Below the pieces are notes generated by a model, which was given only the letters and a program-made list of their open reading frames with translations, was not told the origin of the DNA and made no database searches. Shown here one piece after another: positions 44,939 to 48,293 of a stretch of DNA of 64,000 bases (within the stretch, counting starts at the first letter, position 1; every line of letters begins with the position of its first letter). Origin of the DNA: an uncultured Chloroflexia bacterium (GTDB lineage Bacteria; Chloroflexota; Limnocylindria; Limnocylindrales; CSP1-4). The position numbers and the translations under genes are program-made. The stretch covers positions 192,001 to 256,000 of the forward strand of contig CAVVNQ010000004.1 of the NCBI GenBank assembly GCA_963749705.1, in the 5' to 3' direction.

Positions 44939-45382
44939 ATGGGCATCACGCGTTTTGCCGAGACAACCTGGGCCGGCGACCTGGTCAGCGGAACGGGCTC
45001 GATCAACTACGTGAGCTCGGGCTCGATCACGCGGCTGCCGGTGACTTGGGCGTCGCGCACCGAGGAGCACAACGGGCGGACCAGCCCCGAGGAGCTGATC
45101 GCCGCGGCGCACGCCGCCTGCTTCTCGATGGCGTTCAGCAACGGGCTCGCGAAGAACGGCACGCCGGCGACGAAGCTCGACATCAGGTGCGTCGTGTCGT
45201 TCGACAAGGGCGATGCCGGCTGGGGGATCACCAGCAGCGCGCTCACCGTCAGCGGCACGGTGCCGGGGATCGACCAGGCGAAGTTCGCCGAGCTCGCCGA
45301 CGCGGCCAAGAACGGCTGCCCGGTGTCGCAGGCGCTCAAGGGGAACGTCGCCCTTTCGGTGGAGGCCACGCTCACCGACTGA
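44939..45382 (+). CDS. osmC: OsmC-family peroxiredoxin
   Basis: SPEELIAAAHAACF and AK.GCPVS motifs. Confidence 0.9.
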   Translation: MGITRFAETTWAGDLVSGTGSINYVSSGSITRLPVTWASRTEEHNGRTSPEELIAAAHAACFSMAFSNGLAKNGTPATKLDIRCVVSFDKGDAGWGITSSALTVSGTVPGIDQAKFAELADAAKNGCPVSQALKGNVALSVEATLTD

Positions 45383-45487
45383 GCGGCGGCTCGGACCTCG
45401 GCCGCCAACCTGGAACGATGTCCCCGGGTGCCCGGACGGGGGTGCCCGGACTAGGGGGCCCGACGTCGTGCGCCGGTGCACCGAAGG

Positions 45488-45518
45488 TTGTCGAAAACTG
45501 AACCACAGCTTGTCGAAA
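45488..45518 (+). promoter_or_regulatory. Direct repeat TTGTCGAAA x2, 22 bp apart (regulator-binding candidate)
   Basis: TTGTCGAAA at 45488 and 45510, upstream of a GCAAC...CGTT ECF-like promoter. Confidence 0.45.
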
Positions 45519-45562
45519 CCTCGATCGACGCGTGCGCAACCGCAGATGCAGACTCTGCCGTT

Positions 45563-45660
45563 GGCAGGGTGGCTGAACCGCTCGGGGGCGGGTTCCACCA
45601 GCGCGGCGTCCCCATCCGGTCGCCAAGACCGCGCTGGGCCAATGGCGAGACCGACCCTGT
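45563..45660 (+). ncRNA. c-di-GMP-II-like riboswitch variant in the 5' UTR of the secreted protein gene
   Basis: P1 GCAGGG/CCCTGT; P2 GGC/GCC; P3 CCAGCGCGG/CCGCGCTGG; pseudoknot GGTCGCCA/TGGCGA-GA-CC; the 3' strand GCCAATGGCGAGACCGACC parallels the class II GUUAGUAGUGCAACCGACC. Confidence 0.62.
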
Positions 45661-45700
45661 GTACCCGCGGGACGAACCGCGAGAGAAAGGGTCAGCGCTC

Positions 45701-46483
45701 ATGGAGAGAGCCATACGCTTCAGGATCCTCGGATCCCTTGCCGTCGCGGCAGCGCTTGTGCTGCCAGCTGGGCCAGCGATGGCTGCCGGGCCAAAGGCGG
45801 CACCCGCGATCACGTGCTCCGGTGGTGCCATCTCATCAGGCACCTACCGCAGCGTCACGGTCACCGGCTTCTGCGGCGTTGCGCCGGACGCCGTGATCAC
45901 CATCGTCGGGAACCTGAACGTCGAAGCCGGTGCCTTCCTCGATGCGCAGAGCGCGCCGTCGACGATCACCGTCGGCCACAACGTCACCGCGGCGGCGGGT
46001 GCGCTCATGGGCCTGGGCTGCCAGCCGACCTCGCTGGTCCACAACACGGCACATCCGTGCACCGTCGAGCCGGACGGGCATTCGATGATCACGGTCAACG
46101 GGAACGTGACCGCCAATGGCGCGAACACCGTGCTGCTGAACGGGATCACGGTCAAGGGGAACGTCACGCTGACGGGAGGAGGCGGCGACATTCCCTGGTC
46201 GATCAAGAACAACGCGATCAGCGGCAACCTCACGGTGACCGAGGTGACGGCCGACTGGCTCGGCGTCCTGTTCAACACGATCGGCAAGAACGCGACGCTG
46301 ACCAAGATCACCGTGACCGATCCGGGCGACGAAGGCCGCCTCGCGTTCGTCGTTCAGAACACGATCGGGCGGAACCTCAGCTGCATGGGCATTGACCCCG
46401 GTGTGGCCGGAGGCCTGTTCCCCGGCGAGCCCAAGAACGTCGTCGGCGGTCACGCGCTCGGTCAGTGCGCATCACTGGTCTGA
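45701..46483 (+). CDS. Secreted hypothetical protein with TVxGNxT repeats (beta-helix-like) and paired Cys
   Basis: Signal peptide ...PAGPAMA; repeated T(I/V)xGN(L/V)T(V/A/L); GAAAGG RBS. Confidence 0.8.
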   Translation: MERAIRFRILGSLAVAAALVLPAGPAMAAGPKAAPAITCSGGAISSGTYRSVTVTGFCGVAPDAVITIVGNLNVEAGAFLDAQSAPSTITVGHNVTAAAGALMGLGCQPTSLVHNTAHPCTVEPDGHSMITVNGNVTANGANTVLLNGITVKGNVTLTGGGGDIPWSIKNNAISGNLTVTEVTADWLGVLFNTIGKNATLTKITVTDPGDEGRLAFVVQNTIGRNLSCMGIDPGVAGGLFPGEPKNVVGGHALGQCASLV

Positions 46484-46808
46484 CCTAGCTCGAACCTTGC
46501 CGTCCGCCTCCCGCTGGCACCAGCGGGCGGCGGGCGGGCGCTGTCACTCGTCAGCGCGGCCACCTTGAAATCCGGTGGTCCTGGCCGCCCCGAATCCCGG
46601 ACCCTCGTCGTGAGATCCGATGCGCCTGCCTCGTCCGTGTCGCCCGCGTGTACCCGGGCGGCGCGCGAGGATGTCCGCTCCGGTCCGCCATCCCGCGAGG
46701 GGAAGGACCATCGGTGACAGCACCGAGTGCCAACGGGCACTTGCCCGGCCGTGGCGCACCCGGATGATGCCTCTGGCGTCCGAGCCGGCGGATCGGAGAC
46801 CACGACCG

Positions 46809-48293
46809 ATGACCTCAGCACCGAGGATCCCGTTCGCACGCGTGCCCGTGCTCGCGATCGCGGGCCTGGTCGTGATCGGGCTGCTGGTGCTCTCGCCGCT
46901 GTACGGGTTCCACCGCGACGAGCTCTACTTCATCGTCGCCGGGCAGCACCCGGCACTCGGCTACGACGACCAGGGGCCATTGACGCCGCTGCTCTCGGCG
47001 GCTGCGGTCGCGCTGCTGGGCGCGTCGCCGACGGCCATCAGGATCCTGCCCGCGCTCGCGGTGGGTGCCTGTGTCGTCCTGGCGGGACTCCTCGCGTGCG
47101 ACCTCGGCGGCAGCCGGCGTGCCCAGGTGATCGCCGCAGCCACGCTCGCGGCCTCCGGGTACCTCGCCGCGGGACACCTCGACTCGACCACGACCTTCGA
47201 CCTCCTGGCCTGGACCGTGGTCCTGTGGCTCGTGGTGCGCCTGCTCGCCGGTGCCGACCCGCGGCTGTGGCTGGCGGTCGGCGTGACCGTGGGCGTCGGG
47301 CTGGAGAACAAGCTCATCCTGCTGTTCCTCGGCGCCGGTCTGGTCGGCGGCCTCGTGCTGGCGCGCCGCTGGGACATCCTGCGGTCGCCCTGGGCCTGGG
47401 CCGGGCTCGCCATCGCCGTCCTGATCTGGGTCCCCAACCTGGCCTGGCAGGCGTCGAACGGGTTCCCGCAGCTGGAGATGGCGGGGCGCATCAGCGGCGG
47501 GTCGGACAGCCGCGTCAAGCTGGTCCCGGAGATCCTCCTGCTCGCCGGTCCGCTGCTGTTCCCGATCTCGTTCGCGGGAGCGTGGTGGCTGGCACGCGAC
47601 CCCGCGGCGCGACCGTGGCGGGCCGTCGGCTATGCCGTCCCGCTCCTGCTGCTGCTGGTCGTCGCAACCGGTGGCAAGAGCTACTACGTCGCCGGGACGT
47701 ATGCGCCGCTGATGGCCGGCGGCGCCATCGTCGTCGACCGCTGGCTGCCCCGCGGGCGGCCGTTGCTGCGACGGGGTGCGCTTCTGGCGTCAGGGACGGC
47801 ATCCCTCGCCATCACCGCGGTGCTGGTGCTGCCGATCCTGCCGCCGGCGACGTTCGCCGCGTCGCCGGTCCCCGACATCTACGCGGAATCATCGGAGCAG
47901 CTCGGCTGGCCCGAGCTCGTCGACACGGTCGCACGCGTCGCTGCGGACCTGTCGGCGGATCAGCGCGCTCGGGCCGTGATCCTGACCGACAACTACGGGG
48001 AGGCCGGGGCGATCGAGCTGCTCGGATCCGGGCTGCCGCCGGTCTACTCGGGCCATAACGCGTACGCCCGCTGGGGCCCGCCCTCGGACGACCGGACGAC
48101 CGCGATCGTGGTCACCCATGCGACGAGCTCGGACTTCGCAACCTACTGGGACCTCGGGACATGCCGACTGGTCGCGAACGTCGACAACGAGCTCGATCTC
48201 GCAAACCAGGAGCAGGGCGTGGGCGTCTGGGTCTGCCCCGAGGTGACCGTCCCGTGGTCCGGGCACTGGGCGCGGATCGCACACCTCGACTGA
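46809..48293 (+). CDS. GT-C glycosyltransferase (GT39/ArnT-PMT_2-like)
   Basis: FHRDELYF...GY.DQ.PL, ENK, WQ..NG.P and NYGEAGA motifs; multiple TM segments. Confidence 0.85.
   Translation: MTSAPRIPFARVPVLAIAGLVVIGLLVLSPLYGFHRDELYFIVAGQHPALGYDDQGPLTPLLSAAAVALLGASPTAIRILPALAVGACVVLAGLLACDLGGSRRAQVIAAATLAASGYLAAGHLDSTTTFDLLAWTVVLWLVVRLLAGADPRLWLAVGVTVGVGLENKLILLFLGAGLVGGLVLARRWDILRSPWAWAGLAIAVLIWVPNLAWQASNGFPQLEMAGRISGGSDSRVKLVPEILLLAGPLLFPISFAGAWWLARDPAARPWRAVGYAVPLLLLLVVATGGKSYYVAGTYAPLMAGGAIVVDRWLPRGRPLLRRGALLASGTASLAITAVLVLPILPPATFAASPVPDIYAESSEQLGWPELVDTVARVAADLSADQRARAVILTDNYGEAGAIELLGSGLPPVYSGHNAYARWGPPSDDRTTAIVVTHATSSDFATYWDLGTCRLVANVDNELDLANQEQGVGVWVCPEVTVPWSGHWARIAHLD

Follow-up and report, generated by a model that had tools for sequence, protein, structure and literature searches.

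A probable c-di-GMP-II-GAG–type riboswitch candidate in which a hairpin takes the place of the kink-turn

Results

Pairings of the Window Element

Positions 45564 to 45660 of the window, as we call the whole 64-kb stretch of DNA that was analyzed, most probably represent the aptamer of a c-di-GMP-II-GAG–type riboswitch candidate in which a hairpin is found instead of the kink-turn and translational control is likely. The riboswitch candidate class to which we assign the element is known and still orphan, and we regard the element as a new structural form within it. Sequence comparisons indicate that the hairpin type is conserved as a structural subtype in a bacterial lineage rather than being a peculiarity of this locus. 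The pairs that the original prediction had listed for P1, P2, P3, a pseudoknot, and a GAACC/GGUUC hairpin are all present in the window, in the following arrangement.

45564–45569 (+): 5′ strand of P1, GCAGGG, pairing with 45655–45660
45570 (+): J1/2 nucleotide, U
45571–45573 (+): 5′ strand of P2, GGC, pairing with GCC at 45638–45640
45575–45595 (+): extra hairpin, named P2a, occupying the kink-turn site
45598–45606 (+): 5′ strand of P3, forming a perfect 9 bp with 45629–45637
45607–45616 (+): 5′ part of the P3 loop, with a conserved UCCCC run
45617–45625 (+): 5′ strand of the pseudoknot, CGGUCGCCA (CGG-UCGCCA), in the P3 loop, complementary to 45643–45648 and 45651–45653
45629–45637 (+): 3′ strand of P3, pairing with 45598–45606
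45638–45640 (+): 3′ strand of P2, GCC, directly after P3, the kink-turn GA being absent
45643–45653 (+): 3′ strand of the pseudoknot, UGGCGA-GA-CCG, whose GA bulge (45649–45650) is the signature of the GAG variant
45655–45660 (+): 3′ strand of P1, CCCUGU, pairing with GCAGGG at 45564–45569, with one G-U pair

Within P2a, the basal stem consists of GAACC (45575–45579) and GGUUC (45591–45595), and the upper part is GCU/GGC with a bulge in the minimum-energy fold. The 3′ pocket strand carries the GAG signature GGCGAGACC at 45644–45652. Folding of the element as a single sequence gives no signal by itself (z +0.38), which is expected because the RNA is pseudoknotted and the DNA is ~72% G+C.

Assignment to the c-di-GMP-II-GAG Class

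The c-di-GMP-II-GAG variant was reportedly defined by Weinberg et al. in PNAS in 2017. At the Rfam gathering thresholds, no RNA family matches anywhere in the 64-kb window. When 45400–45760 was searched with permissive filters, the sole Rfam match, at 45575–45665, was RF03169 (c-di-GMP-II-GAG), which scored higher there than the rest of its clan and covered all 86 model positions, with 37.6 bits (E 6.2e-6) for a gathering cutoff of 40. The proposed class II–type aptamer of the GAG variant is supported, RF03169 being the only match.

In the alignment to RF03169, the pocket strand, the pseudoknot strand, and P3 agree almost letter for letter, a two-position deletion falls at the consensus GA of the kink-turn, and P1 is drawn from bases of the hairpin with five nonstandard pairs. 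The score stays below the cutoff because the kink-turn (a 3-nt bulge plus tandem G·A pairs) is missing and the model has no room for a hairpin. We rejected this placement of P1 inside the hairpin on account of its nonstandard pairs, whereas the P1 formed by 45564–45569 and 45655–45660 covaries.

The window element resembles RF03169 in 1) a closing helix P1 with GG/CC by the junction, a single-nucleotide J1/2, and P2 GGC/GCC, 2) a P3 hairpin with a pseudoknot strand in its loop, 3) a putative pseudoknot that would join CGGUCGCC and GGCGA..CCG, with a GA bulge, and 4) its position in a 5′ leader. In contrast to RF03169, the window subtype has no kink-turn: a hairpin of 17 to 32 nt replaces the 3-nt bulge and the 5′ GA, and, where the consensus reads uauGA...GA, the 3′ GA is deleted, likewise in the 76 homologues described below. 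Most hairpin-type members also differ in having a longer P3 with a conserved UCCCC after it. As for canonical c-di-GMP-II (RF01786), the overall fold plan is the same, but the canonical element has a bulged AA where the window has GA, a kink-turn where the window has a hairpin, and a GCAC/GUGC pseudoknot where the window has UCGCC/GGCGA, so that all the pairs are exchanged. Since the bulge is GA and not AA, binding of c-di-GMP by the window element cannot be assumed. By two tests, the sub-cutoff score and the absence of a kink-turn, the element is not a textbook GAG member; it is presumably derived from, and would work like, the c-di-GMP-II-GAG class.

A single canonical c-di-GMP-II element, which RF01786 scores at 54.0 bits for a cutoff of 53.5, occurs in the genome to which the window belongs (3.6 Mb in 22 contigs). 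It lies at G000:C5:20637-20719 (−) (locus L002, 1500–1584) and carries a bulged AA and a GCAC/GUGC pseudoknot. The same genome has, at G000:C18:97057-97118 (−) (locus L003, 1501–1562), a weak match of the GAG kind (22.2 bits). That match contains the kink-turn GA and the pocket strand, with 13 nt where P3 and its loop span 38 model positions, and it may be a decayed or minimal copy.

What Takes the Place of the Kink-Turn

In the parts of PMC4316175 that deal with the canonical class II aptamer, for which the solved structure is PDB 3Q3Z, the kink-turn is described as a standard simple k-turn whose C helix splays apart and forms part of the ligand site, and whose NC helix mediates the loop interaction that makes the rest of this site. 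In the window element, the hairpin is inserted on the strand that bears the kink-turn bulge (5′), both G·A pairs are lost, and on the 3′ strand P2 follows P3 with nothing in between. The idea that a hairpin replaces the kink-turn, which dates from the original prediction, is upheld by the RF03169 alignment and by the conservation and covariation of this hairpin in the homologues. P2, the hairpin, and P3 would meet as a three-way junction, which presumably provides the sharp bend that brings the P3 loop back onto the 3′ tail.

Three-way junctions at kink-turn sites have a precedent in the k-junction, which, in the portion of PMC10573300 devoted to it, has its third helix on the nonbulged strand and keeps the G·A pairs. 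The k-junction of the TPP riboswitch, as far as the relevant parts of PMC4005666 and PMC10573300 describe it, is similar to our case in being a three-way junction at the kink-turn site of a riboswitch, and different in that the window helix is on the bulged strand, without G·A pairs. Its helix being on the bulged strand and its G·A pairs lost, the window element shows the kink-turn replaced rather than elaborated, and hence is not a k-junction. We found no description of a hairpin-for-kink-turn variant in the literature searched, although members with a hairpin may already figure in the paper in which the GAG variant was defined.

Homologues and Distribution of the Hairpin Type

A blastn search with the window leader in 70 genomes of the genus recovered ~30 leaders of the same architecture. 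They share the order P1, one junction base, GGC, one or two junction bases, a hairpin that varies, A, P3, and 3′ strand, with a P3 that begins with CC and a 3′ strand identical to that of the window type. By comparison, kink-turn–type siblings in the same genus read GGC-NNN-GA, P3, GA-GCC. We aligned 29 of 31 leaders with MAFFT (alignment A1) and built from A1 a covariance model with the nested helices (R1); of the two leaders omitted, L061 has a kink-turn and the 3′ strand of L052 is shortened. A cmsearch with R1 over 79 loci gave 80 matches of 46 to 111 bits, of which 76 are distinct and were aligned as A2. These conserved and covarying homologues substantiate the earlier claim of a structurally distinct subtype.

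R1 matches 57 of the 70 genus genomes (E 1e-3 or better) and, at E 1e-6 or better, 66 of the 151 family genomes sampled, spread over 34 of 49 genera. In an order-wide draw, it matched 53 of 108 family genomes and none of 42 genomes of the sister family. In a phylum-wide draw, 8 of 151 genomes were matched. Among these matches, one of 51.7 bits comes from another class, and a second family of the same class contributes two that are strong and span the full length (103.9 and 88.1 bits). These thresholds also let in the best kink-turn–type elements, which measure ~88 nt and for the most part stay under 47 bits, while hairpin-type matches are 100 to 131 nt long.

RF03169 itself matches in 55 of 60 other genomes of the genus, with up to 23 matches per genome, and in none of 40 genomes of the small-genome sister family. 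When it was scored on 21 hairpin-type elements from 20 loci, values ranged from 26.9 to 47.5 bits; since only 3 of them reach 40 and 18 fall below, the curated Rfam cutoff misses most of this type.

Two further arrangements were seen in relatives. Several RF03169 matches occur within a few kilobases at, for example, G058:C10:2342-6726, G021:C243:25692-34213, and G027:C7:2913-8259, and such clusters look like arrayed riboswitch–gene cassettes. At locus L074, both types stand side by side in divergent orientation, ~200 nt separating a kink-turn–type GAG element (1808–1892, +, 61 bits) from one of the hairpin type on the other strand.

Covariation of the Helices

Three helices of the proposed structure covary among the 76 homologues of A2. 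In P1, all seven pairs keep pairing through two-sided changes (83% of cells paired); in the P2a hairpin, all six modeled pairs have changed on both sides with pairing kept (88%); and in P3, this is the case for 10 of 11 modeled pairs (91%). None of 500 column shuffles reached any of five whole-structure measures, and sliding the partners by one to three columns lowered pairing from 89% to 36–48%. P1, the hairpin, and P3 thus exceed chance.

A2 was fitted to R1 and is therefore biased toward the modeled structure. Two checks are independent of this fit. RNAalifold, run on the unfitted MAFFT alignment A1, predicted the hairpin base, some of P1, and P3, and in a mutual-information scan over every pair of columns, the hairpin and P1 pairs came out on top. 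Of the hairpin segments folded alone, 74 of 76 reached at least −4 kcal/mol in stability (median −10.5).

P2 (GGC/GCC) is 99% paired in A2, nearly invariant, and shows no covariation. The main pseudoknot is fully complementary in the window, 93% paired in A2, and invariant within the subtype. Being near-invariant, both are uninformative either way within the subtype, and the only support for the pseudoknot comes from the comparison with the canonical copy in the window's genome, relative to which all its pairs are exchanged. The window has every subtype-invariant position intact. Its J1/2 U, which had been singled out as unusual, is real and is a minority state that recurs among the 76 homologues (A in 59, U in 14, G in 2, gap in 1).

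The Proposed Second Pseudoknot

The most striking part of the first reading was that this is a double-pseudoknot subtype, in which pairing of the hairpin loop (45584–45590) with the C-run after P3 (45607–45613) would reshape the pocket and change its ligand specificity. The complementarity does exist: GGGGGCG at 45584–45590 can pair over 7 bp with CGUCCCC at 45607–45613, and the pairing is feasible, since the isolated duplex is worth −12.2 kcal/mol, against a cost of ~2.9 kcal/mol for melting the three upper hairpin pairs. G-rich loops of the CUCGGGG kind are also found in L088, L132, L133, L134, and L084, with L132 and L134 able to form six contiguous pairs with their own P3-loop segment, and the conserved UCCCC is otherwise without explanation.

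The homologues, however, speak against a feature of the family. Hairpin loops are of 4 nt in 48 of 76 and of 3 nt in 11, mostly of the UUCG, CGCG, UGCG, and GCGA kinds, and these 59 cannot form the second pairing. The longest contiguous complement between hairpin and P3-loop segments averages 4.75 bp, against 4.55 in shuffles. At least 7 bp are reached in 4 of 76 homologues, for 3.3 expected and 8 in a physically impossible, reversed-orientation control, and 7% of shuffles of the window hairpin segment do so as well (P ~0.07). L088 and L133 do not get beyond 5 and 4 bp, with part of these best matches inside stems, the C-run is retained where the G-rich loop is absent, and a mutual-information scan of the 76 homologues found no covariation between the hairpin and A2 columns 75–87. 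Loop lengths, shuffles, the reversed control, and the mutual-information scan led us to reject the second pseudoknot as a family feature and to give a double-pseudoknot subtype very little probability. What stands of this part of the original prediction is the 7-bp complementarity in the window, which is not above chance and is probably a fortuitous match of a G-run and a C-run.

A small residual probability attaches to a loop/C-run contact specific to the group of five leaders to which the window belongs (L087, L088, L132, L133, and L134), which have longer G-rich loops and orthologous downstream genes; these five related leaders vary too little to decide the matter.

The UCCCC run after P3 (45607–45613; A2 columns 75–78) is itself well conserved, with T in 66 of 76 homologues followed by C in 65, 70, and 67. 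The mutual-information scan of A2 found no partner for it. Pairing with the G-rich 5′ arm of the hairpin was considered and rejected, because the hairpin covaries internally and no covariation joins the two. Pairing of UC with GA at 45627–45628, as an extension of P3, is found in 74% of cases with almost no covariation, and these pairs may extend P3.

Promoter and Expression Platform

The features that flank the aptamer are as follows.

45549–45554 (+): −10-like hexamer CAGACT, a putative promoter element ~10 nt 5′ of P1
45653–45658 (+): candidate anti–Shine-Dalgarno, GACCCU, shared by the pseudoknot/P1 and an alternative helix
45666–45681 (+): linker hairpin CGCGG/CCGCG, enclosed by the alternative helix
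45686–45693 (+): Shine-Dalgarno region, AAAGGGUC, lying 9 nt ahead of the ATG
45701–46483 (+): putative regulated gene for a 260-aa protein without Pfam family, with its ATG at 45701, 40 nt after P1

A scan for the sigma-70 consensus finds nothing. At the place equivalent to the CAGACT hexamer, 21 of 31 related leaders have CA[TGC]ACT or TACAAT, most relatives having CATACT, which suggests that the transcript starts just 5′ of P1. The element would then lie at the 5′ end of the mRNA for the 260-aa protein, which appears to be secreted. In one metatranscriptome run, contigs fall on 45300–45503, 46029–46273, and 46452–46600 and none on 45520–46003; these contigs bear neither way on transcription.

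In the fold of 45641–45712, GACCCU (45653–45658) pairs with AGGGUC (45688–45693), at −25.5 kcal/mol (z −2.31; 4 of 200 shuffles are as stable). In the aptamer, the G of GACCCU belongs to the pseudoknot, its A to the junction, and its CCCU to the beginning of the 3′ strand of P1; since the same six bases take part in both helices, the two states are mutually exclusive. The duplex between tail and Shine-Dalgarno region is worth −11.3 kcal/mol in the window and −7.7 for shuffles. As a family-wide statistic this complementarity is weak (mean z −0.39 over 60 homologues, 23% below −1), and the test has low power because shuffled purine-rich Shine-Dalgarno regions still pair with the pyrimidine-rich tail. 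No terminator-like site was found in 45350–45760, and transcription termination was rejected as the mechanism for this reason. According to the model that we favor, GACCCU would pair with the Shine-Dalgarno region in the absence of ligand, while ligand binding would hold it in the pseudoknot and P1 and leave the ribosome-binding site free. We put the odds that the expression platform is such a translational ON switch at about even.

Downstream Genes

The original prediction had placed a secreted-protein gene 40 nt downstream, and this agrees with the ATG at 45701 and with an N terminus that looks by eye like a signal peptide, with basic residues, a hydrophobic run, and AMA-A. The 260-aa protein resembles only clusters of hypothetical proteins, mostly from Actinomycetota. 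Orthologues with 61 to 65% protein identity follow the same subtype in four genomes (L088, L132, L133, and L134). Around relatives of the protein at 40 loci in other, mostly actinobacterial genomes, the element never adjoins the gene, the sole match (20.8 bits, L145) being >1 kb upstream. The gene upstream of the element (44939–45382, +) encodes an OsmC-like protein (PF02566, E 2.6e-19), and the one downstream of the 260-aa protein gene (46620–48293, +) encodes a PMT_2 glycosyltransferase-family membrane protein (PF13231, E 5.3e-15).

For a wider view of the regulated genes, we took after each element the first frame with a Shine-Dalgarno–like motif, a GC3 of at least 0.8, and a start 5 to 70 nt after the element. 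Of the 76 distinct hairpin-type elements, 60 passed this filter and 16 were dropped; for the kink-turn type (31 elements at 30 loci), 28 frames passed. Pfam assigns the 60 hairpin-type proteins to DUF6176 (16), SnoaL (10), SCO4226-like (5), Polyketide_cyc2 (2), NosD/Beta_helix (2), and collagen repeats (2), plus singletons. The 28 kink-turn–type proteins, most of which have by eye hydrophobic, signal-like N termini, include SnoaL_2 (6) and NosD, Beta_helix, DUF642, and GDSL lipase (2 each). Small cytoplasmic proteins weigh more in the hairpin type. The overlap in SnoaL-like, NosD/beta-helix, and collagen-repeat proteins suggests one regulon and one ligand.

Pocket Bulge and Ligand

The likeness of the bulge to the GAG variant, already pointed out in the first reading, extends to the homologues: of the two bulged bases, the first is a G in 73 of the 76, and the second (45650; A2 column 130) is mostly A (51), otherwise U (18) or C (6). 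The second base differs with the downstream gene. Among the 19 elements linked to DUF6176 it is U in 14, C in 4, a gap in 1, and never A, whereas it is A in 50 of the 56 others.

These figures bear on whether all or some members of the three-way-junction subtype respond to a ligand other than that of the kink-turn GAG type and are specificity variants too. The shift of the regulon toward DUF6176, SnoaL, and SCO4226-like proteins, the signal-like N termini encoded by most kink-turn–type genes, and the U or C found in 18 of the 19 DUF6176-linked elements would all fit such a change. We consider it unlikely, as the two types do not otherwise differ in their pocket-forming strands, SnoaL-like, NosD/beta-helix, and collagen-repeat genes are found downstream of both, and the U/C state may be one inherited change in orthologous loci. 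The sharing of downstream gene families argues, weakly, for the same ligand. A split within the hairpin subtype, with the DUF6176-linked U/C elements and the A-type elements sensing different signaling molecules, seems to us just as doubtful, and this reading rests on the second bulged base contacting the ligand as in class II. If true, the strong difference between the two regulons (small cytoplasmic DUF6176, SnoaL, and SCO4226-like proteins vs. secreted proteins) would give a handle on the GAG ligand.

We found no ligand assigned to the GAG class in the literature searched; the GAG variant of class II is an orphan riboswitch candidate. It could be argued from this, and from the presence of a single such element in the window genome when relatives have up to 23 RF03169 matches, that the element is not a small-molecule sensor at all and is a protein-binding leader, an RNA thermometer, or a decayed, functionless copy. 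We think this highly improbable. The window keeps every invariant position of the subtype, the element precedes orthologous genes in four other genomes, and its architecture is that of a solved class of ligand-binding aptamers. The genome also has 17 GGDEF-domain matches, which together with one diadenylate cyclase domain indicate that cyclic-dinucleotide signaling is present and do not identify the ligand.

Discussion

The second pseudoknot should not be carried forward. The replacement of the kink-turn amounts to a natural experiment on the role of this motif, in which a three-way junction has been swapped in and the pocket kept. The subtype adds a large set of covarying natural sequences, mostly missed by the Rfam cutoff, and a wider list of regulated genes from which the ligand might be guessed, comprising DUF6176, SnoaL-like, SCO4226-like, and secreted beta-helix proteins. 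It also fills or corrects an annotation gap across a bacterial family, in which it was found in 53 of 108 sampled genomes.
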